Shown: piece after piece, positions 4,837-33,753 of the stretch | Layout of the letters: each line of letters starts with the position of its first letter | Numbering within the stretch: position 1 is the stretch's first letter | Origin: a virus | Lineage: Duplodnaviria; Caudoviricetes | DNA length: 64,000 nt | Direction: 5' to 3' (one strand) | Virus record (IMG/VR): IMGVR_UViG_3300032030_000007 | Span: 32,001 to 96,000 of that record | Made by a program: the position numbers and the translations under genes | Notes under the pieces: generated by a model | Seen by the model: the letters and a program-made list of their open reading frames with translations, nothing else | What the model was told of the DNA's origin: nothing | Databases searched by the model: none

Positions 4837-6524
4837 TTAATAATCTAAATTTAACATCTCCCATTTATCTTTTTCAGTTACACTATATTGTTTTGATTCT
4901 ATTAATGCATCTATATACATTTCAAATGCTTCTTTAAAATTGCTTATTGAACCATTAGGAAATACTTCATAAATACCATCATAAAATTCTTCTCTCCAAG
5001 CAGTCATTGGACGATACCAAATATCAACCCAAACATCAGTTTCAAATTCAGTGTCACAAGTAACATGAAACTTATCAGGTTCAGAATATCCTGTGCCACA
5101 ACTACAATTTGGTCTTAGATGCTTAATAAATTTAATAGATGTTATTTTCATATATTTTTATATTTAATTTGAATATATATATCGTAATCAATTTCTTTGT
5201 AATCTTCGGGACGATCTTTCATATTTTGCAATATATCTTGTAAATTTCTTGAACTATAATAAAAATCAGGTCTACTTAAATTACCACCAATGAATTTTTT
5301 TGTATAATCATTATATGGCATAATTAAAAACATTGGGAATTTTAAAACATCAGGCTGAGATATTGTCATCAATCGTTTTTCATAGAATTCTGGTTCATTA
5401 GTCCAACCTGCAGCAAAATCACAATGCCAATAACCCTGTCCTTCTAATCCACGACCATTTGCAACAAGAACTTTATCATATTCTTTAATTTGATTAAATC
5501 CAACTTCTTTATAGATTAATTCATATTGATCTTCATCATAAGTTTTAAACATTGTACCATCATCAAAATAATATTCAGTCCAATAATAATATTCATCATA
5601 TCGCCCGCTATCATCAATATCTGACATACGAACTGCTTTATTAATACGACCAAATACTTGATGATCCTTTTTAAGTCTTACAATATCACCAATCTGAAAT
5701 CTATCATTTCTATAATCCATAACTATTCAAATTTAATTATTTCTTTATCTAATATTAAATTCATAAAATCTTTTCTATAACACCAATATCTAATATCTTT
5801 CCAAAAACACCATTCTTCAAAACCTTCTTCAACTCTCCAATTTTCTGGTTTATTTATATCATCAGGATATATATGTTGTTCTAAATAACCAATTCCAAAC
5901 CACCATTTATTATGTTTATAATTTAGAAAACATATTGGCTCATATTCCTTAGGTGGATTATCATTGTCTCTTTTAATCCAAGTTAGCTTATATGTATTTT
6001 TTATCTGTTTCATTGAATATTGGCTTGACATTCTTTATATTGACCCATTGACAGAATTTTCCAAATGTATCATGTATTGCAACTTTTGGAAGATATTCAT
6101 TAATGATTAGACAAAAACATATCTTACCTTTATGTTTTACCATCTTAAACTCATTTCCATTAGCATCAGCAAAAGAAAACGAATTATCATCAGGCATTTT
6201 CTTTAATATGTTTTTTGATTGATTAATGTAATGAGATGGCAACATTGATAACATAGCTGTATGTTCATCAATAGATTTATTGTCTAATTTACGAGCTAAA
6301 TATCTTTTGCCTTTATGCTCCCATTCTTCATCTGTTTCTGCAAACTGTTTATTTACAATCATACAAGCATTCTGATAAGTGACAATAGTCATGTCAGAAT
6401 CATCATATTCATAAACACGTCTATCATCACCATCTTTCCAAGGAGACATTTGTAATAGATATTTATCCATTACTTTATATATGTTTCCAGTGTTATTAGA
6501 TTGCAAATATGTACTATTATCCAT
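4837..6524 (-). CDS. Four tandem hypothetical proteins (4837-5151, 5148-5720, 5723-6031, 5988-6524)
   Basis: Abutting or overlapping co-oriented ORFs with no recognisable motifs. Confidence 0.6.
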
Positions 6525-7138
6525 TATTTCATATATAAATTATTTTCTTTTATAATGTTATATACTCCCCTATTAAAATATAGTTCAACGTTTTTGTTTT
6601 GTTTAATAAAATTTCTAATATCTGTAGAATGCATTTCAAATCCTGGCATAAGATTAACATAAGCCTTGCATTTGCAAATTTGACTAAAATATTTTTCAAA
6701 TTCTGGTTTGATTGTTCCAACAATTATCATTCTATCAATATACTTTGATAAAATTTCTGTTGAATTATACCAAGATCCATATAATATCTCATGATAAGTT
6801 TCTTCAGTCAAAATCCAAAGAAAATCTTTTCCTATAGATTTATCATTATCATTAGAAAGATATTCTAACATATCATATGTATATGTCCAATCATGCTTAA
6901 ATTCAATATCATTTACGATTACATTAGTATCTTCTGTTGATAATGGTTCAAACATTAATTTTGACATATAATACCTATAAAGAATCGGAGTTGAATCTTT
7001 CTTATTTGGATTTTGCTTAGTTGGAATTATATGAATGCTATTAATTGATTTTGATATATCTGAATTAATAACACTCATAATAACATTAGCATGACCAATA
7101 TGTGGTGGATCAAATGAACCTAAAAATATTGCATTCAT
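6524..7138 (-). CDS. nadD: Nicotinate/nicotinamide mononucleotide adenylyltransferase (NadD family)
   Basis: GSFDPPHIGH (HxGH), PTKQNPNK, YTYD and HSTDIR (SSTxIR-like) motifs. Confidence 0.88.
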   Translation of the reverse strand: MNAIFLGSFDPPHIGHANVIMSVINSDISKSINSIHIIPTKQNPNKKDSTPILYRYYMSKLMFEPLSTEDTNVIVNDIEFKHDWTYTYDMLEYLSNDNDKSIGKDFLWILTEETYHEILYGSWYNSTEILSKYIDRMIIVGTIKPEFEKYFSQICKCKAYVNLMPGFEMHSTDIRNFIKQNKNVELYFNRGVYNIIKENNLYMK

Positions 7139-8056: not shown

Positions 8057-8085
8057 AATATAGTTCAAATAATATTAAAATTCAA
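8057..8085 (-). promoter_or_regulatory. Recurrent promoter TTGAAT-N16-18-TATATT (representative copy)
   Basis: Same motif at 17116-17143, 18576-18605, 23435-23462, 26189-26216, 27939-27967, 33785-33812, 49352-49379, 50718-50745, 59613-59640, always intergenic upstream of minus-strand genes. Confidence 0.75.
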
Positions 8086-8112
8086 AAATGGCAGATCTTA
8101 AGATCTGCCATT
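8084..8112 (-). terminator. Intrinsic terminator after the Cys-rich gene
   Basis: AATGGCAGATCT/AGATCTGCCATT hairpin followed by a T run on the minus strand. Confidence 0.8.
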
Positions 8113-8132
8113 CTTAAATATATAATTGATTT

Positions 8133-10991
8133 TTAACCTACTTGTGGAATTACATAGCCTTGACATGGACAATATTGATCACAATCACAGTGTGGATAGT
8201 ATGTCTTTTCATTACAAGAACATGTATCAACTTTTGACTGACATAAGTGAGCTGTGCAATTACCTACATTTGTATTACATGTACATGCATCATATGAAGG
8301 ACATACTGTATTATATGTGTTACAGTCACATTGACATGAATCTTTTACTGTTGTATTATGTGTGTTACAATCGCATTGACACGAATCTTTTACTGTTGTT
8401 CCTTGTGTGTTACAGTCACAGTTACAGCCAGTTCTTGCATTTGAACAGTGTCCTCCACAGTTCGAACATTGTGTATAACAGTTACATGAGTCAGAACAGT
8501 GTCCAGCACAATTTGAACATTGGGTATAACAGTTACATGAATCATTACAGTGTCCAGCACAGTTTGAACATTGGGTATAACAGTTACATGAATCAGAACA
8601 GTGTCCAGCACAGTTTGAGCATTGGGTATAACAGTTACATGAATCATTACAGTGTCCTCCACAATTTGAGCATTGAGTATAACAGTTACAAGAATCTCCA
8701 CAGTGTCCAGCACAATTTGAACATTGGGTATAACAGTTACATGAATCATTACAATCTGGAGAACATCCTACAACATTACAATCACAGCTACATACATCAT
8801 TACAAGAACAACCTACATATCCTCTATCTGTACAGTCGGGATCGCAAGTAGCATCGCATATGCATTTACGCTCTGCATTACAAAAACAAACACAACCACC
8901 TTCATAATTGTAATCATGCGTTAAACAATCATCATTTGTTACTGCATTGCAATCACATCCGCATGGATCATGACCAGTACAATCACATGAACAATCGCTA
9001 TGACTAGCACACTGTTCTCTATAATCTATACATTTCCAATTCGCATGTTCTCCATTACAACTAGAATTATTGTACTGATCATAAGGTAAACAATTATGAC
9101 CACATGTTTTATATCTACAAGAATCACCTGATCCTGATGTTTGTGAATCACAATAACAGTGCCAATCTTTACAATCAGCACATTCTGCAGTGCAGGAACC
9201 ATTATAATGATTATCAGCACATGTATTAGAATAACAATAACCACTACTATAATTATTTTCTTTACATTCACAAGATTGTGTATGACAAGTACATGCCGCA
9301 TATCCATGGCATCCGCATCCTGTCCAACTTTCGCATAAACAATATCTTGGGTCATCCTTATAATATGATTTACATGTACTATATTGTGAATTATTACATC
9401 CATCACCATCACAAGTACAATAAGTTCCATCATTATTACAATCACAATAACAGTCATCTTTATATGTACGTGTATGATTATTGCAATCGCATTGACATGA
9501 ATCTTTAGTTGTACGAGTATGATTATTACAATCACATTGACAAGAGTCCTTCGTTGTTGTATTATATGTATTGCAATCACATTGACATGAATCTTTTACT
9601 GTTGTTCCTTGTGTGTTACAGTCACAGTTACATGCACTTGTTGTATTAGAACAATGACCAGCACAGTTCGAACATTGTGTATAACAGTTACATGAATCAT
9701 TACAGTGTCCAGCGCAGTTTGAACATTGAGTATAACAGTTACAAGAATCATTACAGTGTCCAGAACATGTGCTATCATTATTACAGATACAGTCCGCACA
9801 TTTTGTATCACACGTATTATTTTGGTTACAGTCGCATACACATACGACATGTGATGCACATGCTGTACCATAAGCAGCACAGTGTTTATCACATGGTGAT
9901 GTGCTACCGCTTATTTCTTGTCTTACAAATGTTGTATTGACATGACATTGACATTTATCATATTGGTTACAGTCACAATAACAATATATGTCATCTTCGA
10001 CAATAGTAACATCTTTTATTGTACCTGCATTACCAGTCATTCTAAATGATACAGAACTAGAAGTATTGTTTGCTGTAGTTTTTGTTACTGTAATTCTGTC
10101 TGCATTACCTGACATAGGAGATACAGTATAGTTGTTTGAGCTTAAATTAGAAATTGTATATGATGTGTTACCTATCAATGACACATCTATGCCAACAGAC
10201 GAATTTGCTGCATTTACAATACCTGATTTTTCTAATGACAATATTATATCGTTAGGATGTGGATTAGCTCCTTGAGATACAGACACAGTAATAGATGTAT
10301 CATTCTTCTTTTCTTTAAATATAATATTTCCGCTTCTTGCAGCTCCAGCATTACCTTGTACCGAAACAACAACTGATTTAGATCCAGCTCTGTCTTCAGA
10401 TTTACTTAGTGCTACCCATGCAGGTTTGCTTACTAATGTCCATCCTGTGTATGATTTGATTTTAAGCGTCTGAGTTGCAGGAGCATCATACCCATATTCA
10501 TATTGATTATAATATGGAACTAATCTAATATAACCAGCATTATCTCCAGAAGTTACACCATCATTATGTTGATAGTAATAAACCTTGATAAAGTGAGAAC
10601 CTGCAGTAGGAACAGTAATATTTATTATATCATCTGTTGTACCTGACATTTTCTTCAATAATGGGTTTTCATCTGTTGTATCTAATTTACATATACCAAG
10701 AAAATCATTTGGACTTTCTGAACTAACAATTAAATCTAACTGTATTACTTGATTATTAGTATATGTCTTAAAGTTAACAAATGCAATATTGGGTGTTCCT
10801 TCTCCTCGTCCAGCTAACTTATAATAAAATTTATTATTTTTTGTTACGACTGTAGTAGTACCGACAACAGTACCTGATTCATAAAGCCAAGATTCTTCAG
10901 TTAATGTTTTTTGTATACCATAATCGAAAGATAATGATGTTGGTGCAATATTAAACTTAAAAAACCCTCCTAATATACGTCTTCTTAACAT
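8133..10991 (-). CDS. 952-aa protein: N-terminal beta-rich and BACON-like domains plus ~610-aa Cys-rich repeat region
   Basis: BACON-like stretch (WTLVSKPAWV...NAGAARSGNIIF...VSVSQG); more than 100 Cys in CxCDCN and CxDSCNCYTQCSNCxGH repeats. Confidence 0.85.
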   Translation of the reverse strand: MLRRRILGGFFKFNIAPTSLSFDYGIQKTLTEESWLYESGTVVGTTTVVTKNNKFYYKLAGRGEGTPNIAFVNFKTYTNNQVIQLDLIVSSESPNDFLGICKLDTTDENPLLKKMSGTTDDIINITVPTAGSHFIKVYYYQHNDGVTSGDNAGYIRLVPYYNQYEYGYDAPATQTLKIKSYTGWTLVSKPAWVALSKSEDRAGSKSVVVSVQGNAGAARSGNIIFKEKKNDTSITVSVSQGANPHPNDIILSLEKSGIVNAANSSVGIDVSLIGNTSYTISNLSSNNYTVSPMSGNADRITVTKTTANNTSSSVSFRMTGNAGTIKDVTIVEDDIYCYCDCNQYDKCQCHVNTTFVRQEISGSTSPCDKHCAAYGTACASHVVCVCDCNQNNTCDTKCADCICNNDSTCSGHCNDSCNCYTQCSNCAGHCNDSCNCYTQCSNCAGHCSNTTSACNCDCNTQGTTVKDSCQCDCNTYNTTTKDSCQCDCNNHTRTTKDSCQCDCNNHTRTYKDDCYCDCNNDGTYCTCDGDGCNNSQYSTCKSYYKDDPRYCLCESWTGCGCHGYAACTCHTQSCECKENNYSSGYCYSNTCADNHYNGSCTAECADCKDWHCYCDSQTSGSGDSCRYKTCGHNCLPYDQYNNSSCNGEHANWKCIDYREQCASHSDCSCDCTGHDPCGCDCNAVTNDDCLTHDYNYEGGCVCFCNAERKCICDATCDPDCTDRGYVGCSCNDVCSCDCNVVGCSPDCNDSCNCYTQCSNCAGHCGDSCNCYTQCSNCGGHCNDSCNCYTQCSNCAGHCSDSCNCYTQCSNCAGHCNDSCNCYTQCSNCAGHCSDSCNCYTQCSNCGGHCSNARTGCNCDCNTQGTTVKDSCQCDCNTHNTTVKDSCQCDCNTYNTVCPSYDACTCNTNVGNCTAHLCQSKVDTCSCNEKTYYPHCDCDQYCPCQGYVIPQVG
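8448..8753 (-). repeat. Six tandem 51-nt coding repeats (C[NGS]DSCNCYTQCSNC[AG]GH)
   Basis: Read directly; two more units at 9654-9755, and 45-nt CxCDCN...KDS repeats follow both blocks. Confidence 0.95.
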
Positions 10992-11019
10992 TTAAGTATA
11001 TTACATATATTTTTATAAT

Positions 11020-12546
11020 TTATTTTAATCCTAACCAAATTAAAATATTATTAAAGAATCCACTAGTTTCTTCTTTTTCTATTTTTTCAACTTTATCATT
11101 GCATTGACATGTACTTTGTTTACAATTACATTTCTGTTGTTGATTATTTTGATTTTGTTGATTAATTCTATTTTGTCTATTTCTATTTACATTATTTCTC
11201 CACCTTCTATACATATCTAATACACCACGATGAGCTTTTCTCATTTCCCATTCTTTAATCCATATATTACAATTACGAAGGTCATGACACATCTTGGCTC
11301 TAATACATGATGGCTTAATTGGACAATCATTACATATATCGTAATCTTCTACATAATCTTGGAATTTTCTAATTTCTGTCATGTCTTTCATTTCAGGATT
11401 ATCTACATGACCCCAGAAATGATCTTCAGAATAGTGTTCACAAACTCCAATATCACCTTGTGTACCAATTACAACAGCTTGTCCATGATCAATCATACAA
11501 TGCGTTGCACGTACATATGTTCCACGATCACGACCATGTAAATATCCATAATGATCTAATACTTCATCAATTTCTCTTAATTTAGTATATAATAATTCAT
11601 TTTCTTCTGCAGTTCTAGGATTATCGTCATCTTCAAATATTGGCCAACAATATGGGGCAATATTTTTATGATTACCAAATCGTGTATAAAGCTCTTTAAT
11701 CAATTTTTTAAGATTTTCAGCATTTTCAACACAAGTATTCATACGAATAGATATGTTCATACCCCAATCAGCCATCATTTGAATATTGTCCATAACAATC
11801 TTATATGGGCTTTTACCTTTTACATTTTTATAATTCTTAATCTTATTGTATTCTTCTTCAGTGCCATCAAGAGTGATTTGACCAGATCTCAAATGCCATA
11901 AATCACGATATTTGTCTAATTTTTCTTTTTTAAATAAAAAACCATTTGTAGTCATACTAGATGCATAATTAAATCCGGCGTCTTTAACTATTTGGCAAAT
12001 AATATCTATACAATGTTCTCCAACTAATGGTTCACCACCAAACCAACGTAATTGAATTTCACGTCCGTTTTTCATAGCGTTTTTAACAATCCAATCACCA
12101 ACTTTTCTTGCTGTTTCTGCAGTCATTGGTTTTTGTGGACGTCCTGCTTCATAACAATATGAACATCTTGCGTTACAAGCCATTGTTGAAAATATTGTAA
12201 ATTCATAAATACGACCTGATTTAAGATATGATTCATTCTCACAACTTGGACGACCATTTAACTTTAATTTTTCTTGAGCTGCGTGTTCATCATAATTTTC
12301 ATTTACTAAGAAATAATTATTCCAAAGCCATTGAACATAGTCAACATTAAGATCATCATATATCTTATTCCATTGTTCATTAGGAATCCATATAAATGAA
12401 CGTGTTAATTCATTATGAATAGCTTTACCGTTATCAACATCTTCAATAACAAGGTATTTCATTAAACGTACTGATTGATTTTCATCTCTTGTGTTTTGCC
12501 CAAGAAATTGTAAATACTTTTGATTTGATTTTCTAATTATATTCAT
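11020..12546 (-). CDS. Radical SAM/SPASM-domain maturase
   Basis: CNARCSYC (CxxxCxxC), WFGGEP, TTNG, C-terminal HC..GDIGVC..CNDCPIKPSC...C SPASM pattern, ~100-aa N-terminal extension. Confidence 0.92.
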   Translation of the reverse strand: MNIIRKSNQKYLQFLGQNTRDENQSVRLMKYLVIEDVDNGKAIHNELTRSFIWIPNEQWNKIYDDLNVDYVQWLWNNYFLVNENYDEHAAQEKLKLNGRPSCENESYLKSGRIYEFTIFSTMACNARCSYCYEAGRPQKPMTAETARKVGDWIVKNAMKNGREIQLRWFGGEPLVGEHCIDIICQIVKDAGFNYASSMTTNGFLFKKEKLDKYRDLWHLRSGQITLDGTEEEYNKIKNYKNVKGKSPYKIVMDNIQMMADWGMNISIRMNTCVENAENLKKLIKELYTRFGNHKNIAPYCWPIFEDDDNPRTAEENELLYTKLREIDEVLDHYGYLHGRDRGTYVRATHCMIDHGQAVVIGTQGDIGVCEHYSEDHFWGHVDNPEMKDMTEIRKFQDYVEDYDICNDCPIKPSCIRAKMCHDLRNCNIWIKEWEMRKAHRGVLDMYRRWRNNVNRNRQNRINQQNQNNQQQKCNCKQSTCQCNDKVEKIEKEETSGFFNNILIWLGLK

Positions 12547-12748
12547 ATGTATTTATATATTTAAGATATTTATATCTATTAATTAATTATAAAAAAAATA
12601 CTATACTTGGATTTAGTATTTTATGATAAATTATTTACTTATAAATAAAAATAGATAAATAATGAACCTAAATTCAATATATATTTAATAATATATCTTT
12701 CTTAATAATTAGTTTATTTAATAATACTAAAAAATGTTGAACTTTTGT

Positions 12749-13657
12749 TCAACCCTTATTAATATCAATAACTACAGGTAATCCTTTTCGTTTATATTTT
12801 GTTCGTCTTATACGGCCAATAACATCATCAACAGTATGATAAGTTACTTTATCATTATTTACATCATATTTCTTATGTAGTTCATCCATTGCAATCCGAT
12901 ATGCTTCTGGATGTTTTCCTCGATATTCAAGATATGTCTGAATGATATCATCAACTTTCTTATAAGCATCTACATTTTTATCTTTAGCAAATGCTGGAGC
13001 AATCTGCCCCATGTCACCAAGATCATTAACACCATTACCATCTGTTGGACGAATACCTAATGCATAATCAAGAGCTTGTACTTTATTAGTGTTTAATACT
13101 CCAGATTCATTTTGATAATAATCTCTAATATATTGAGCTAACTCATAAACTTCATGTTTCCAAAGACCTCCAATTGGATTTAAATCTGCAACATCTCCAT
13201 GAATTGTAAAGAATCCAAGATAATGCTCAGTAAGATTATCAGTATCCATTACTAATCCCTTGAAATAATTTGCAAGATCATAAAGATATATCATACGAAG
13301 TCTAGCCTTAATATTTCCCTGTCCAATAGTTGTTGGAAGATGACGTTGAGAACATACACCTTTCATAAGAATAAACTCATGCTGTAAATTCTCAGTCCAA
13401 TATTGTCCTTCTTTACAGAATGCTTTCATACAAGCATTAGCTGAATTATTTTCATCAATACTATTTGATGTACATGGAAGACTTACACCAAAAAATTTCA
13501 AATCAGGGTTTCTTCTTTCAACTTCTGAACAAATAGCAGCAGTTACAGTAGAATCAATTCCACCAGAAATACCAAGAATCATTGCCCAAAGATTATTATC
13601 TTCAAGATACTTCTGAGTTTCTTGCACCATTGTTTCAAAAACTTTTGCGTAATTCAT
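12749..13657 (-). CDS. nadE: NH3-dependent NAD+ synthetase
   Basis: GISGGIDS, GNIKARLRM, TDNLTEHYLGFFTIHGD, LNPIGGLWK; no glutaminase domain. Confidence 0.95.
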   Translation of the reverse strand: MNYAKVFETMVQETQKYLEDNNLWAMILGISGGIDSTVTAAICSEVERRNPDLKFFGVSLPCTSNSIDENNSANACMKAFCKEGQYWTENLQHEFILMKGVCSQRHLPTTIGQGNIKARLRMIYLYDLANYFKGLVMDTDNLTEHYLGFFTIHGDVADLNPIGGLWKHEVYELAQYIRDYYQNESGVLNTNKVQALDYALGIRPTDGNGVNDLGDMGQIAPAFAKDKNVDAYKKVDDIIQTYLEYRGKHPEAYRIAMDELHKKYDVNNDKVTYHTVDDVIGRIRRTKYKRKGLPVVIDINKG

Positions 13658-13810: not shown

Positions 13811-14334
13811 ACGTTATAATATTTAATAATGTTTTCAATTACATACCACCAACATACACCTTCAGTACAAGACCAAAGAAGTGTTCCAAGAAAATGGGCA
13901 ATTTTATTATCAGTAAACCCGTTATAATAATTTACATACATATTTCTGACTCTTATTGCATTAATCAAAATTAAAATGCAAATAATAAAAAATATAATAT
14001 TCATAATTTAATAAGTTGCTTTAAAATCAATACCATTATTTGGAAGATACTTACAATACCAATAATTATATCCGTTGTCTTCAATATGTTTGTATACTTT
14101 AACTTTAGGATTATAGTCTAATTGTATGATAGATCCAATTTTTGGTTTATTTGGTGTCTTTTTAATAATCTGTTCATTAATGCATTCTTTTTCATAAACA
14201 AATATATCTTTATCATCAATTAAATATTCTGTAATATTATGACCAGATCTAATCAATTTAAGCATTCGTTGTGCTAAATCATTTTTATCTGTACCTAGCC
14301 AACTTAAAATCGTAGATTTTGTTATCATATTCAA
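13807..14334 (-). CDS. Two hypothetical proteins (13807-14004 membrane-like; 14008-14334)
   Basis: Packed between pncB and nadE. Confidence 0.6.
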
Positions 14335-15584
14335 TTAATATATTTTAATCCATCTTCACCAGGTTCTCCTTTTGGATCTCCATGGTTTAATGAGATAGGA
14401 ATATTCAGTTCATAACATGCATGATTGAACTCCTGATTATCTCCCATATGTTTTCCAAAATCATCAGAAATCTTAATTGTAAGATACCAAGACTGATTAG
14501 AATTCATACGGCAACGAGACATCTTCATAACGATATTCTCTGCATCATATTTTGTTCCATCAGGAGCATATACATCACATGTAAGATTTGTTCCAATTCC
14601 AAATGAACACTTGATTCCTCTTTCCTTACAATATTGTAAGATCTTAACAGCTTTTGGAAAATCAAGTGCATTAGAGAATACGATTGTTTTTGTATGATAA
14701 TCAATTCCTTTATTTATATAGAAATTAATTGTCTTATCAGTAAATTCATATTCATCTCCTGAATCCTGACGAACACCATCAAAAAGTTTAGCCTGTTTTA
14801 ATGAGAAGTTCTTGAAGAACACATCTGTTGTGTATGTATCTGAAAGAGCAATACCAAGATCTCCATCATATACATCTACCCAGTTTTCAAGAGCTATATA
14901 ATTTGCAGACTTATATCCATACTGAGCACCATGGAACATAAACCACTCGTGAGGGTGAGTACCAATTGGCTTCATATCATACTTCATTGCAAAATGTACG
15001 TTTGAAGTACCTACACAAGTCTTAGAATTTTGTTTCAAGTATTCACAAACCTTATCTTGAACTTCATAATTGAAACGGCGGCGTGTTCCAAATTCTGAAA
15101 ATAGCATTCCCATAGAATTCGCAAGATTAACCTTTGCTTCAAGCTTAGACATTGTAAGCTCCCAGTTAATAGGTTTATCTTCATTATTTACCTCAGGAAT
15201 AGCATACATACAAGGAATTTCATACAAAGAAGCCTTATAGCATTTATCTGTTACATCCATACAAAGTACACCTTCATCATCAAGATATACTCTAATCTTA
15301 TTAAATTCAAATCGGAATGAATACAACCACTCCCAATAATACTGTGCAATAAAATCTACCCTGTGTGAAGTAAGTAACCAATTAAGCTCAGGAATTGTAA
15401 GTTTAGTATTATTACAAATATCCCTAAGCATCATTTTAAACTTCTTCAGAAATTTTGGAGTACGTTTAATTTTATTCCTATCCTTAAATGTAAATGTACA
15501 TTCAGCATCAGGAAATTTCTTCATATAAGCATACGATGTAGTAAACTTATATAGATCTGTATCAAGTATTGAAAATTTCATCAT
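14331..15584 (-). CDS. pncB: Nicotinate phosphoribosyltransferase
   Basis: LDTDLYKFT, EFGTRRR, GTSNV, PIGTHPHEW, ALSDTYT, GVRQDSGD, FGIGTNLT, KISDDFGK. Confidence 0.96.
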   Translation of the reverse strand: MMKFSILDTDLYKFTTSYAYMKKFPDAECTFTFKDRNKIKRTPKFLKKFKMMLRDICNNTKLTIPELNWLLTSHRVDFIAQYYWEWLYSFRFEFNKIRVYLDDEGVLCMDVTDKCYKASLYEIPCMYAIPEVNNEDKPINWELTMSKLEAKVNLANSMGMLFSEFGTRRRFNYEVQDKVCEYLKQNSKTCVGTSNVHFAMKYDMKPIGTHPHEWFMFHGAQYGYKSANYIALENWVDVYDGDLGIALSDTYTTDVFFKNFSLKQAKLFDGVRQDSGDEYEFTDKTINFYINKGIDYHTKTIVFSNALDFPKAVKILQYCKERGIKCSFGIGTNLTCDVYAPDGTKYDAENIVMKMSRCRMNSNQSWYLTIKISDDFGKHMGDNQEFNHACYELNIPISLNHGDPKGEPGEDGLKYIN

Positions 15585-17193: not shown

Positions 17194-17199
17194 AAATTG

Positions 17200-17582
17200 T
17201 GGACCCAGACAGATTCGAACTGTCGTCTTAATAACCGTCATACTAAAACTTGTTACATGCTTCTTAGAAGTTTCTATCTTCAAAATATCTAGTTTCGTAC
17301 TATTCCAGAAAACCAGAAAACTTGGAGGTACACTTGAATTGAATAGCCAAAAGCTCCTTCCGCTATGTTTGTGAGACTTCTGTTGCCCGACCCGTAGGTT
17401 CTCACTGCGCCGGCTATGCTTATTTATAACCTAACTAATTAAAATAGTATCCCTGAGGGATTAAGCAGCCATCCTGTAGAAAGTATCTTCTTCAGCATTT
17501 ATTGTTTTTGATTCTTTAACGACATAATCAAGTCGACATGATTTTAATACTCAAATTACTAATCAAATACCAAAATGAGCCC
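17200..17582 (-). ncRNA. ssrA: tmRNA; tag peptide (A)AEEDTFYRMAA
   Basis: 5' GGGCTCA pairs with 3' TGGGTCC-A including G3.U70; T-arm GACAG-TTCGAAT-CTGTC; ATAAAT-GCT resume context and a tag ending AA-TAA at 17461-17496; CCA not encoded. Confidence 0.95.
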
Positions 17583-23405: not shown

Positions 23406-23506
23406 ATCTTTATATTTTATTTGTTTGATAATTTAATATAGATCATTATCAAAAAAATTCAAATATAATAAAAAAATGGAACTATAAATTAATCTAATTC
23501 TATTTG

Positions 23507-23577
23507 TAATCCCAATAGGAATCAAACCTATACCTATTCTTTAGGGGAGAATTATGCATTCATTACACCATAGGATC
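23507..23577 (-). tRNA. tRNA-Arg(CCT), degenerate or possibly pseudo
   Basis: Cloverleaf GATCCTA/TGGGATT, ATTCT-CCCCTAA-AGAAT; has C33 and T-loop TTTGATT. Confidence 0.65.
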
Positions 23578-23947
23578 ATACATCACCTCTTAATTTCAAT
23601 GTATTATATAACTCTTCGATATGATCAAATAAAGTTTTGTAATATCTTCCATAAGTAGTTTTCCAAAACCCATCTTTATCATATTCGTATCTTGTTATAT
23701 ATTCATAAAGATTTTCTCCTTTATTCAACAAATCATAATAATACTTAATATCTTTTATAGTCCAATATAGCATATCATAATTTCCGTGTTCTATTGGACG
23801 ATCCCACCCTTCAGTATGAAATAACAAAATATGTAAAGCATTTCTATATTTGTAAATACCACCACGTTGAATACCAAATTTTTTGCAATTACGATTTTTT
23901 GGTATTTTATTCCAACCAAATTTTCGTTTGTCTTTTAATGCTTTCAT
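23576..23947 (-). CDS. Hypothetical protein within tRNA cluster
   Basis: 123-aa ORF; stop overlaps the tRNA 5' end. Confidence 0.6.
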   Translation of the reverse strand: MKALKDKRKFGWNKIPKNRNCKKFGIQRGGIYKYRNALHILLFHTEGWDRPIEHGNYDMLYWTIKDIKYYYDLLNKGENLYEYITRYEYDKDGFWKTTYGRYYKTLFDHIEELYNTLKLRGDV

Positions 23948-23971
23948 AAATTGAATATTTAAATATTTACG

Positions 23972-24054
23972 AGCTTATACTGAGAATCGAACTCAGATCT
24001 CCACCCAAGATGGTGTTCTCCATCGTCTGTGATTTACCATTAAACTATATAAGC
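23972..24054 (-). ncRNA. tRNA-like RNA with non-canonical elongated anticodon arm
   Basis: GCTTATA/TATAAGC acceptor, D arm, CTGAG-TTCGATT-CTCAG T arm; centre is CAC..GATGG-AGAACA-CCATC..GTG with no 7-nt loop. Confidence 0.7.
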
Positions 24055-24059
24055 ATATG

Positions 24060-24241
24060 TAGGGATGATGGGATTCGAACCCACGCTATGTTTAAGGTGG
24101 TACATAAAACGCGCTTCCTTACTCGAGTTTCACCTCTTTTCAGTGCTTCCGCAAACTTAACTCCTGGATTTCTCCTTCAAGACATTTTCCACCACGACAC
24201 TCGTTTTATCGCGCTCTGTCCAAGTTCTGAGCTACATCCCT
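24060..24241 (-). ncRNA. 182-nt tRNA-like RNA (ACG-type loop) with ~105-nt structured insertion in the variable region
   Basis: AGGGATG/CATCCCT, GCTC/GAGC D arm, CGATA-AAACGAG-TGTCG, GTGGG-TTCGAAT-CCCAT. Confidence 0.75.
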
Positions 24242-24250
24242 ATATATAAG

Positions 24251-24326
24251 TGACCGCAGAGGGATTCGAACCCCCGACTTCTTCGTTCGTAGCGAAGTGC
24301 TCTAAAATCCACTGAACTATGCGGCC
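24251..24326 (-). tRNA. tRNA-Arg(ACG)
   Basis: CTTCG-CTACGAA-CGAAG anticodon arm, canonical cloverleaf. Confidence 0.95.
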
Positions 24327-24333
24327 AATAATG

Positions 24334-24408
24334 TACTCCGGATGGGACTCCAACCCATGACCTGAATATTAGAAGTATCCTGCTCTATTGCAACTGAGCT
24401 ACCGGAGC
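24334..24408 (-). tRNA. tRNA-Arg(TCT)
   Basis: GGATA-CTTCTAA-TATTC; atypical T-loop TTGGAGT. Confidence 0.9.
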
Positions 24409-24415
24409 ATAATTG

Positions 24416-24491
24416 TGACCCTGGAGGGATTCGAACCCCCAACCTGAAGGGTAGAAGCCAACTGTTCTAAATTCCGTTGAACTACAGGGCC
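24416..24491 (-). tRNA. tRNA-Arg(TCT), second copy
   Basis: GTTGG-CTTCTAC-CCTTC with two U.U mismatches; other arms canonical. Confidence 0.85.
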
Positions 24492-24503
24492 AAATGCGGC
24501 TAC

Positions 24504-24570
24504 GCAATTTATTTTTACAAGGAGCCGTAACCTATCTCCTCAACCTTTATCCTTTGGCATCTGCAATTGC
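24504..24570 (-). ncRNA. Small structured RNA related to 24602-24717
   Basis: GCAATT/AATTGC terminal stem, TGC[C]AA/TTGTA bulged-C helix, shared GATGCC and TAGGTTAC motifs. Confidence 0.5.
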
Positions 24571-24601
24571 ATTGTACACTACAATATACAAATAAAGCTT
24601 T

Positions 24602-24717
24602 AATTGAGAACCTTGCAAGTAACCTAATCAAGCATTCAGTGGATTCGAACCAGCATCCCCTCTAACGGGAGGTATTTTACCCTTAAACTATCGTAGTCTT
24701 TTTCGGCATCCTCAATT
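24602..24717 (-). ncRNA. Structured RNA: long terminal stem enclosing a tRNA-like D/central/T core
   Basis: AATTGAGGA/TTCTCAATT, TGC[C]GA/TTGCA, TAGTTTAAGGGTAAAA D-like arm, TGG-TTCGAAT-CCA T loop; no normal acceptor end. Confidence 0.6.
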
Positions 24718-24718
24718 G

Positions 24719-24790
24719 TACCCCCGGTAGGATTCGAACCCACATCTTATGATCCGTAGTCACACGTTCTTTCCTTTGAACTACGGGGGT
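24719..24790 (-). tRNA. tRNA-Arg(ACG), second copy
   Basis: ACCCCCG/CGGGGGT; TGTGA-CTACGGA-TCATA. Confidence 0.93.
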
Positions 24791-31817: not shown

Positions 31818-33753
31818 TTACCAAAGTCTACGATCTACTCTATTATCTATAAGCCACTCAATATGCTCTTTTAAGTCACGTTCTCTCATTTCTTTTTTGA
31901 TCTCAATATCAGGATCAAATCTATTATATTCATATGCATGACATGTAGTTCTTCCGAACTTATAATTTCTCATTGCGCCGTCTCTGCCACAATTTTCATA
32001 AAACCGGCAATCAAAACAAGGATTATCCATAAATTATTAAAGTTTAATATCAATTTTTAAATTTAACTTAGGATCTATTTCAACTTCAATACAATCAAAT
32101 CCACAAAATCCATTCAAATACTTATGAATATTTTCTTTCCACCAAATTCCAAACATCATACAGTCACGTAATAATGCAGATTCCCAAGTTGGAGTATGAT
32201 AACCAGGATATGAATAATTTTCATTTCTATAGATTTCGAGTCCAGAATACAAATCAGCGTTCTTACTAAAGAATACAAAATTCTCACCAAACCATCTAAA
32301 TGGCTGTTTACGCTCTTCATCAGTCAAATAACCTTTACGAAATGGATTAGAACGAAATCCCTTACCATTTTCAAAATAACTATCAATATTCTGTGTCATA
32401 ATTAATATAATTTAATATAAACATTTTCCATAATATTTCATAAATATATTGTGTGCTAATATTTCTGCAGATAATCCTCTTAAATTTGTATTTTGTATTA
32501 CCCAATTCTTGAGGATTACATGCCTTGATTTTATATATGATTCACTTAACATTAAACAAATAATTTTAATTATTATTCATAATTTTCATAATCTTGCCAA
32601 TCATAATGTTTTCCAAAAATATGAATCATAATTGGATAATATACTTTATATTCCCAAAATCCCTTACACAAAATATAATACTTGAAATATTGCCAATAAG
32701 AACATTCATACCATGCACGAATTTTTCTCCCAAGTTTAGTATACATAATAAACCTTTCAGTTGGTCTTTCTCCAAGTTTAAAATCAGGTTCAGACCATTG
32801 AATCATATTGTATTTCCAAAGCCAATTCATAACTTCAGGAGTATGATCTCTTTTCCACCTACTTTCTGTGCTACGATTATACATTGTACAAGAACTAAAC
32901 TTATGAGCAGTTTCTCCCTTACGAACAAAATATTTCTTAAGCCACATAATATTTCTTATTTATTATAATTCTACTTTATATTAATAATCCCAAGTTTCAG
33001 GTCTCGCATTGTCGTAATCTTCAAGATATCTGTTTTCCATTATCTTATCTTCAATAGCAAAATTAACAGCATCTTTATATTCCTTTGAATTGGGAGCATA
33101 TCCTGAACACCAGTCAGCATCAACATCATAAATCTTTTTTGTTTTTGTTGATATAATACGAACTCCATTAAAATGAACTGTTACGTTCTTCTCAAAATGA
33201 TAAGTCTTATAATTGAATTTCTCCTTAAAGAATCGTTTCATTGGACGTGGTGCGATAACACAAATAAAATCTGCGCCATCCTCAATAGCATTACGATATC
33301 CAATTGTAAGATAAACTTCCTTTCGTTTTCCTACCTCACGATTAACACTGCTGTTTGAACGAACAATTACAAAATCACCAACATTAATAGTATTCATATT
33401 AATAAATATTTAATTCGTGTGCTAATGAATGTTTCTTTAAACATAGTTTTTTCCAAATCTCCATACTTATTGGTATAGTAAATGGAATAATGAACTCCAA
33501 TAAATTATATAAAAGTTTTTTCCTACTCATTGGTCATATCCATAATAAGTTCTGAATTCTTAAACTTCTTCTGAAGCCAAGTAATACCGAGAAGCTCGAA
33601 GATTTTCTCCTTAGTAAAATTCTTAAGATACATAAACAGAATTCCAAGAATAATGAAACCGATAAAATTATAAGAATTAACGTTTTCATTAAGAATCATT
33701 ACCATTGCCATTACTGACAGAATGTAAAACGAAATGGAATTTAAAATCTTCAT
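31818..33753 (-). CDS. Five hypothetical proteins (31818-32030, 32037-32399, 32573-32947, 32981-33397, 33523-33753)
   Basis: Co-oriented array after promoter 33785-33812. Confidence 0.6.

Follow-up and report, generated by a model that had tools for sequence, protein, structure and literature searches.

A stretch of 64,000 nucleotides from a Caudoviricetes virus (positions 32,001 to 96,000 of IMG/VR record IMGVR_UViG_3300032030_000007; hereafter the window) contains, on its minus strand, a gene for a radical S-adenosylmethionine (SAM)/SPASM enzyme, P0001, and on its 3' side a gene for a large protein with a Cys-rich tail, P0002. Since the pair recurs at every related phage locus examined, the enzyme most likely staples the whole of P0002 by thioether bonds. 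The two genes are read here as an enzyme-substrate cassette in which a thioether-forming radical SAM/SPASM maturase staples the Cys-rich tail, with a probability of about 0.6. The unit and its boundaries are:

12736 to 12753, minus strand: terminator-like hairpin ending the upstream NAD-synthase gene, GTTGAAC-aaaa-GTTCAAC followed by six T
11020 to 12546, minus strand: predicted radical SAM/SPASM maturase P0001, 508 aa (Pfam; NCBIfam TIGR04463; AlphaFold2 model; fold match to CteB)
10992 to 11019, minus strand: intergenic spacer of 28 nt between the enzyme gene and the proposed substrate gene
8133 to 10991, minus strand: BACON plus Cys-repeat protein P0002, 952 aa, the proposed substrate
8080 to 8119, minus strand: terminator-like hairpin 3' of P0002, an 18-pair stem and then a T run

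The hairpin at 8119-8080 lies directly past the P0002 stop codon and reads GGCAGATCT-taa-GATCTGCC followed by five T. The hairpin at 12753-12736 forms the 5' boundary of the unit, and an AT-rich spacer of ~190 nt follows it up to the radical SAM start. Because hairpins flank both ends, P0001 and P0002 look like a transcription unit of their own. The original prediction, which was made from the sequence alone, had described a two-gene unit with a 28-nt gap and its own terminator, and the open reading frame coordinates and the two hairpins bear this out.

The enzyme is divided into four parts:

12217 to 12546, minus strand: N-terminal domain (aa 1-110), of a CteB-type peptide-recognition (RRE-like) kind by structural alignment to CteB and TigE
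11542 to 12204, minus strand: radical SAM core (aa 115-335), with CX3CX2C at C124/C128/C131 (Pfam and alignment)
11269 to 11499, minus strand: SPASM region (aa 350-426), with seven invariant Cys for two auxiliary [4Fe-4S] clusters (alignment)
11023 to 11265, minus strand: C-terminal extension (aa 428-508), made up of a long helix, an N/Q-rich linker, a CNCKQSTCQCND motif and a terminal amphipathic helix (FFNNILIWLGLK)

P0001 matches the Pfam families Radical_SAM (PF04055, 54 bits against a cut-off of 29.5) and Fer4_12. The three Cys of the radical SAM motif are invariant in an alignment of 57 homologs, as are C350, C369, C405, C408, C414, C420 and C426, which supply the seven to eight Cys by which a SPASM region is recognised. 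The top NCBIfam match is TIGR04463, named 'rSAM_vs_C_rich' (119.4 bits, E 1.6e-34, profile positions 5-391 of 438). Further top matches are FlmE/OhkG, Clo7bot, the geopeptide maturase, PapB and CefB, all far under their curated cut-offs; for example, P0001 scores 89.9 bits against the PapB family NF047865, where the cut-off is 340. TIGR04115, the CXXX-repeat maturase family, is not among the 25 best NCBIfam matches, the weakest of which has an E value of 1.3e-7.

The AlphaFold2 model of P0001 is confident (mean predicted local distance difference test score, pLDDT, 91.4), and its fold matches the SPASM enzymes CteB and anSME. CteB is the best fold match (Foldseek E 1e-16; VIA Z 23.6 over 362 residues) and also ranks first in a profile search of the PDB with the P0001 family (5.9e-18). 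A single-sequence phmmer search of the PDB with P0001 returned nothing, and matches appear only with the 57-sequence profile. Residues 29..447 of the model align with residues 1..448 of the CteB chain, and the alignment thus spans the CteB N-terminal domain. Over the first ~110 residues, only CteB and TigE align with P0001, and the alignments of other radical SAM structures begin at about residue 103-112. The N-terminal extension is therefore tentatively assigned to a CteB-type recognition domain. The predicted radical SAM/SPASM enzyme with an N-terminal extension was accordingly found, with its CX3CX2C motif, its seven SPASM Cys and a CteB-like N-terminal domain. By homology, P0001 would be a three-cluster maturase of the thioether-forming (CteB/CrpC/PapB-like) kind. 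A complex prediction of P0001 with P0002 residues 1-420 gave a score of 0.00, which has no bearing either way.

The C-terminal extension is common to many enzymes of the clade and also occurs in the radical SAM proteins of loci L001, L003, L004b, L005b, L006b, L007, L132b and L133. These endings combine an N/Q-rich linker with a small CxC motif, reminiscent of the substrate repeats, and finish in a conserved amphipathic helix (SLWKKIKDIFE, for example). The shorter 'a' paralogs and a clade of enzymes linked to tail proteins do not have this extension. It could serve in membrane or assembly targeting, or it could be a pseudo-substrate. In one database protein, P0149 (430 aa), the N-terminal module of the proposed substrate and a short Cys stretch run straight into KKEEE...SLWEKIKDIFD, an ending known otherwise from 'b'-type radical SAM enzymes. 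P0149 is either a natural deletion that fuses a substrate start to an enzyme end or an assembly artefact.

The proposed substrate is divided into a Cys-poor N-terminal module and a Cys-rich tail with four repeat arrays:

9984 to 10991, minus strand: N-terminal module (aa 1-336), with 1 Cys (AlphaFold2, VIA and alignment)
8136 to 9983, minus strand: Cys-rich tail (aa 337-952), 22% Cys and rich in N/D/T/S (composition, motifs and AlphaFold2)
9654 to 9755, minus strand: first 17-aa array, 2 copies of the unit CNDSCNCYTQCSNCAGH (aa 413-446; Tandem Repeats Finder and motif count)
9453 to 9632, minus strand: first 15-aa array, 4 copies of the unit CQCDCN......KDS (aa 454-513; Tandem Repeats Finder and motif count)
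8448 to 8753, minus strand: second 17-aa array, 6 copies (aa 747-848), a 51-nt DNA repeat with 89% matches (Tandem Repeats Finder)
8292 to 8426, minus strand: second 15-aa array, 2 full copies and 1 partial copy (aa 856-900; Tandem Repeats Finder and motif count)

AlphaFold2 is confident over residues 1-335 of P0002, which form beta domains. In the model, a BACON domain appears to be split: a strand at 12-22 and residues 170-243 are interrupted by an inserted beta-sandwich (~37-163). An immunoglobulin (Ig)/PapD-like domain (247-337) follows on the C-terminal side. The best structural match of the module is to residues 42-129 of 3ZMR_B, with a VIA Z of 12.7, a root-mean-square deviation of 1.5 A and 21% identity over 85 residues. 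3ZMR is BoGH5A, a xyloglucanase of Bacteroides ovatus, and the matched residues are its BACON domain. Other VIA matches are 6BQM (Z 9.9) and the tail of phage SU10 (7Z47_G, Z 9.2). The Pfam BACON profile PF13004 matches residues 184-240 with 23.4 bits (E 5.9e-5), just under the gathering score of 25; a precomputed match to PF13004 exists for 12 of the 23 family members, P0002 included. The predicted BACON domain thus holds at the level of fold, and its Pfam score falls short of the cut-off. The likeness of the module to phage BACON, tail and Ig proteins is at the domain level only.

No Pfam match was found for residues 1-170 of P0002. The whole protein has no PHROG match and no NCBIfam match at E up to 0.1, which includes the CXXX-repeat target family TIGR04114. 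The N-terminus follows the pattern M-x-R-x-R, in which M1, R3 and R5 are conserved across 23 homologs. A twin-arginine translocation signal was considered for the sequence MLRRRIL and rejected: R3 and R5 are kept in the homologs without a twin arginine (RVR, RIR, RPR), and no hydrophobic h-region follows.

P0002 contains 139 Cys, 135 of which lie in the last 610 residues. The tail opens with a conserved junction, CYCDCN..D.C.CH, and closes with a conserved C.CN.KTYYPHCDCDQYCPCQGYVIP. Between these, it consists of two blocks, each a 17-mer array followed by a 15-mer array, and a non-repetitive Cys-rich middle separates the blocks. P0002 has exactly 8 copies of the motif C.DSCNCYTQCSNC.GH, and the unit C.CDCN...KD[SD] occurs in 6 full and 2 partial copies; DNA arrays of 51 nt and 45 nt match these protein repeats. 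Both the predicted number of more than 100 Cys in the C-terminal ~610 aa of the 952-aa protein and the predicted repeat numbers (eight 17-aa units, about eight 15-aa units) agree with these counts. The location of the Cys agrees in part only, as the two repeat types hold only ~64 Cys and the remainder lie in non-repetitive Cys-rich stretches. AlphaFold2 gives no fold for the tail (pLDDT ~30), and a beta-solenoid or other tail fold is therefore neither supported nor excluded.

The 22 homologs of P0002 all have ~300-390 Cys-poor residues followed by a tail of 9-16% Cys. The first and last tail motifs are conserved, and the repeat units between them differ widely (8, 12, 13, 15 or 17 residues). 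Every full-length relative of the N-terminal module that was inspected has a Cys-rich tail. This holds for 23/23 family members from a word-index search and for 8 further full-length relatives added by an exhaustive search of 1.84 billion representatives with that module, in which the remaining sequences match generic BACON repeats only.

The spacing of residues around the Cys points to a thioether substrate. Among 1953 unique windows from the family, 59% have D, N, Q, E or H three residues after the Cys (Cys+3), against 30.5% +/- 0.8% (0.305 +/- 0.008) when the non-Cys residues are shuffled. In the same windows, these residues are not enriched at position -3. The enrichment at Cys+3 is present in 21 of the 23 family members, and P0002 itself has 63 C-x-x-[DNQE] sites. 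A Cys followed by an acceptor (Asp, Glu, Thr or Asn) at a short, fixed distance is the arrangement by which ranthipeptide substrates are recognised.

The two genes co-occur across phages. All seven P0002 relatives that were looked up have one to three radical SAM genes directly adjacent, on either side of the Cys-rich gene and in differing backgrounds, some of which read TAG as Gln. Conversely, all four radical SAM relatives that were looked up (37-42% identity) adjoin a protein with 14-24% Cys. These four were picked only for their long contigs, regardless of neighbours. In three of their loci, a short leader-like N-terminus of ~55 residues (MADLIA.E...) replaces the BACON module in the substrate. 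The IMG/VR locus L008 also has an adjacent Cys-rich partner. The partner is thus adjacent in 12/12 related loci (seven, four and one, respectively), with order and copy number varying, and a place next to a large Cys-rich protein is the setting that TIGR04463 describes. In a tree of 55 sequences, 20 enzymes with giant partners and one copy from a metagenome-assembled genome (MAG) with a Cys-rich neighbour form a single clade with a Shimodaira-Hasegawa-like approximate likelihood ratio (SH-aLRT) support of 98. Two paralog subclades, a and b, are likewise resolved in this tree. The two genes therefore behave as a pair on the co-occurrence test, and the claim that the neighbouring enzyme has the tail as its protein-scale substrate has passed that test; as a whole, the predicted interpretation is partly supported.

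A close relative of the phage is represented by an ENA contig of 22,420 bases. Three radical SAM paralogs are interleaved there with P0123, a Cys-repeat homolog of 1087 aa, and a second large protein of 785 aa. The cassette is at the same place as in the window, with NAD-synthase and nucleotidyltransferase-like genes on its two sides. In IMG/VR, a scan with the single sequence of P0001 gave no relatives, and these were reached only with the 57-sequence profile. The GenBank phages of INPHARED include nothing close to the enzyme (27.7% identity at best) and no relative of the N-terminal module.

The bacterial relatives of the enzyme, 515 of which were found in gut and rumen MAGs at 31-39% identity, mostly belong to short-peptide loci of the classical type, where a PqqD-like gene is also present, and 58 of 80 have no Cys-dense neighbour. 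Since these are short-peptide loci, most of the bacterial relatives do not extend the giant-substrate family. For example, L106, L114, L028 and other MAG and viral loci (Prevotella, Clostridia and Faecalibacterium MAGs) contain a PqqD-like gene of ~86 aa and precursors of 40-50 aa with 2-3 Cys and many Asp and Glu. These loci apparently belong to a large unnamed family of short modified gut peptides.

More distant phage radical SAM genes (25-31% identity) are found directly behind genes for proteins of 680-870 aa that match Prophage_tail (PF06605) and tail PHROGs. These IMG/VR loci are L009, L011-L016, L019, L020, L023 and L024; the tail gene ends at about position 6000 and the radical SAM gene is next. 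The siphovirus-type tail proteins are rich in Cys, Asp, Gly and Ser in their last 40-70 residues and have 5-15 Cys in the last 80 residues. Their enzymes form a clade of their own in the 55-sequence tree (10 rows, support 100), which is sister to the giant-partner clade. Among 55 complete IMG/VR homologs of the tail protein, 4 have both a Cys tail, defined as five or more Cys among the final 80 residues, and a radical SAM gene immediately downstream, and 51 have neither. The four positives are mutually related and were known beforehand from the radical SAM search, and the new information is in the 51 negatives.

Under the favoured reading, the N-terminal CteB-type domain of P0001 would dock P0002, probably through its M-x-R-x-R N-terminus, its BACON/Ig module or both, and the unfolded Cys-rich tail would thread through the active site. 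There, the 5'-deoxyadenosyl radical would take a side-chain hydrogen from the acceptor at Cys+3 (Asp, Asn, Gln, Glu or His), and the sulfur of the Cys, bound to auxiliary cluster I, would close a small C-x-x-Z thioether (ranthionine) ring. Repeated at dozens of sites, this would yield a densely stapled domain, resistant to reduction and proteases, that would hang from a carbohydrate-binding-type module. We infer serial ring formation of this kind along the tail because of the Cys+3 enrichment and the precedent of the archaeal pair CrpC/CrpA. That thioethers are formed in the phage cassette is likewise suggested by homology and by the C-x-x-[DNQEH] motif.

Several observations weigh against this reading. 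The TIGR04463 cut-off is 525 bits, and at 119 bits P0001 is a distant relative of that family and not a member. Its identity to solved enzymes, on which the assignment of thioether chemistry rests, is 14-16%. A Pfam search of the N-terminus found no PqqD/RRE signature; of the RRE/PqqD domain for which a check had been proposed, the structure thus suggests a CteB-type form, and the sequence shows no PqqD match. The 12 loci share ancestry, and their count accordingly overstates the number of independent events. Two family members, P0124 and P0128, lack the Cys+3 enrichment. The 135 Cys of the tail may exceed any plausible number of acceptors. Finally, C-x-C is the commonest Cys spacing in the family (675 of ~2100 gaps), and CC pairs are nearly absent. 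C-x-C spacing is typical also of metal-binding proteins, and many of the Cys may for that reason bind metals instead.

The last point leads to the best surviving alternative, in which the tail is mainly metal- or iron-sulfur-binding, like a metallothionein, and acts in metal capture, redox buffering or binding to a metal-uptake receptor of the host, while the radical SAM enzyme modifies a few sites or aids folding. Besides the C-x-C spacing, the 2.9-fold enrichment of His at Cys+3, the lack of an AlphaFold2 fold for the apo tail and the suspected metal-related function of CrpA all fit this alternative. A tail that only binds metal would not require a radical SAM enzyme of its own, but such an enzyme is present at 12/12 loci, sometimes as 2-3 paralogs, and Asp, Asn and Gln at +3 fit known thioether acceptor patterns. 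As the main role of the tail, metal binding is considered unlikely. It does not exclude thioether formation, and the two are compatible with each other.

Two other alternatives are less probable still, and neither is preferred over the other. In the first, P0002 is a multi-core precursor with BACON as a large leader, and the tail is cut into many small thioether peptides that are released at lysis as antibacterials or signals. The nearest bacterial relatives of the enzyme are indeed in short-peptide loci with a separate PqqD-like gene, the identical tandem 17-mers resemble repeated cores, and a Peptidase_C1 gene is just upstream of the cassette in L003 and L132. At 10 of the 12 loci, the window included, no protease or exporter gene is seen beside the cassette, and there is no conserved cleavage motif between repeat units. 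The conserved ends and variable middle of the tail fit one continuous domain, and in the sister clade the Cys tail is at the end of tail proteins. These observations make a cleaved precursor improbable.

In the second, the enzyme acts on the tail by other radical SAM chemistry, such as alpha-carbon (sactionine), C-C or C-O crosslinks, conversion of Cys to formylglycine, or epimerisation. On the catalytic core, anSME (Z 21.8) and ChlB (Z 20.8) nearly tie with CteB (Z 23.6), and P0001 reaches the cut-off of no curated family. The strongest sequence matches are nevertheless to ranthionine-type families (TIGR04463/CrpC, PapB, CefB and Clo7bot), whereas scores are low for SkfB (31 bits), DynA (55 bits) and YhhB (41 bits). 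The hallmark of the substrate is a Cys with a polar residue at +3, and a different chemistry is accordingly held to be a poor prospect. A coincidental adjacency, in which the Cys-rich protein is unmodified, disulfide-bonded or of low complexity, is scarcely credible given 12/12 adjacency across phages of different genetic codes and gene orders, an enzyme clade that tracks partner type, and a tail-protein comparison of 4/4 against 0/51.

The place of the product in the virus is less certain than the thioether-stapling cassette itself. P0002 could be an exposed virion fibre or decoration, at somewhat less than even odds. This role is suggested by the tail-protein sister clade, by the fibre and lysis neighbours of the cassette in other phages, and by the likeness of the N-terminal module to phage BACON, tail and Ig proteins. 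L131 and L133 have Peptidase_S74 fibre genes just upstream of the cassette. More generally, in L003, L007 and L131-L134, phages that need TAG to be read as Gln, the cassette is flanked by tail-fibre genes (Peptidase_S74, Phage_fiber_rpt) on one side and by lysis genes (Amidase_3, Peptidase_M15_3) on the other. Against a virion role, the pair in the window and its closest relatives is among NAD-synthase and nucleotidyltransferase-like genes and not in a structural module, and the lack of a PHROG match for P0002 also counts against it.

A broader and more tentative proposal is that gut and environmental phages crosslink exposed parts of the virion with dedicated radical SAM thioether enzymes, acting both on BACON-borne hypervariable Cys-repeat fibres in large gut phages and on the short Cys/Asp tips of siphovirus tail proteins. 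This would be a redox-proof 'vulcanisation' where disulfides cannot form, and the fast-evolving repeats would be a surface in contact with the host or with glycans. That disulfides fail in the reducing gut, and that thioethers are used for this reason, is speculation.

The window is AT-rich (~27% GC) and is coded almost wholly on one strand. Its gene content includes a transfer-messenger RNA, five tRNA-Arg genes, NrdD and NAD-salvage genes. The transfer-messenger RNA gene (17199-17582, minus strand) has the tag AEEDTFYRMAA. The five tRNA genes (23506-24790, minus strand) are all tRNA-Arg, with CCT once and ACG and TCT twice each. The cassette interrupts a conserved NAD-salvage set on the minus strand, made up of cytidylyltransferase-like (6524-7138), NAD synthase (12749-13657) and nicotinate phosphoribosyltransferase (14331-15584) genes, and this synteny is the same in L001 and in the ENA contig of 22,420 bases. 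Weak DNA matches of the window are to uncultured human-faecal phages; they are short and restricted to the neighbouring NAD-synthase gene. The database entry of P0002 is on a contig of 254,601 bases. In our reading, the window comes from a very large phage whose host is a gut anaerobe.

No published description of a phage radical SAM/SPASM enzyme paired with Cys-repeat or tail proteins, crAss-like/BACON phages included, was found in the literature. The first experimental demonstration that an enzyme staples a whole protein through thioethers dates from September 2026 and concerns a single archaeal protein whose function is unknown. We class the phage cassette as a probable case of protein-scale maturation of the ranthionine type in which both the host (phages) and the substrate family, whose members are much larger, are new. 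With the cassette, thioether stapling would reach viruses and substrates of more than 130 Cys; with the sister clade, it would reach recognisable tail proteins as well. The autocatalytic isopeptide chainmail of HK97 is a known covalent reinforcement of a phage particle. If the product is on the virion, the cassette would represent a new kind of such reinforcement, and a new, rapidly diversifying surface module in gut phages of Bacteroidota-type hosts. Enzymes of this clade could also serve for stapling long polypeptides.

Among known systems, the pair most resembles CrpC and CrpA. CrpC comes from Methanococcus voltae and belongs to TIGR04463; it has three [4Fe-4S] clusters and a SPASM region with seven Cys, and it introduces ranthionine thioethers into CrpA (Dieter et al. 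2026, PMC13692751). CrpA, a Cys-rich protein of 28.8 kDa, has a leader-like domain at its N-terminus, and its 17-residue Cys repeat, which contains C-X-X-Q/D, occurs ten times; in the modified motifs the Cys precedes the acceptor, the function is suspected to be metal-related, and the paper does not mention phages (PMC13692751). In both systems, a SPASM enzyme with seven SPASM Cys and an N-terminal recognition domain, putative in P0001, adjoins a protein-sized substrate with a Cys-poor N-terminal part and C-terminal 17-residue Cys repeats, and the phage +3 acceptor pattern echoes the C-X-X-Q/D motif. Unlike CrpA, the phage substrate is 3-4 times larger, has 135 tail Cys (139 in total), carries a BACON/Ig module and contains two repeat types. 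It also belongs to phages of gut anaerobes, and the chemistry that is demonstrated for CrpC is only predicted for the phage enzyme.

The ranthipeptide (SCIFF) maturase CteB (PDB 5WGG/5WHY), which forms a Cys thioether in CteA, is the best match of P0001 by both profile and fold. The identity is 15%, and CteA has ~45 residues and 6 Cys, compared with a phage protein of 952 aa. QhpD is a radical SAM/SPASM enzyme that makes Cys-Asp and Cys-Glu thioethers in the protein subunit QhpC and not in a natural-product peptide (PMC13692751). It resembles the phage system in having a protein rather than a peptide as substrate, but it makes three crosslinks in a small enzyme subunit and its family matches P0001 weakly (TIGR03906, 46 bits against a cut-off of 453). 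PapB/freyrasin and the gut and rumen short-peptide loci share the logic of a thioether from Cys to an acidic residue, and the precursors of the bacterial relatives are short, contain Cys and Asp, and are accompanied by a PqqD-like helper. Their substrates have 40-50 residues, and in the tree the phage enzymes with giant partners form a clade of their own.

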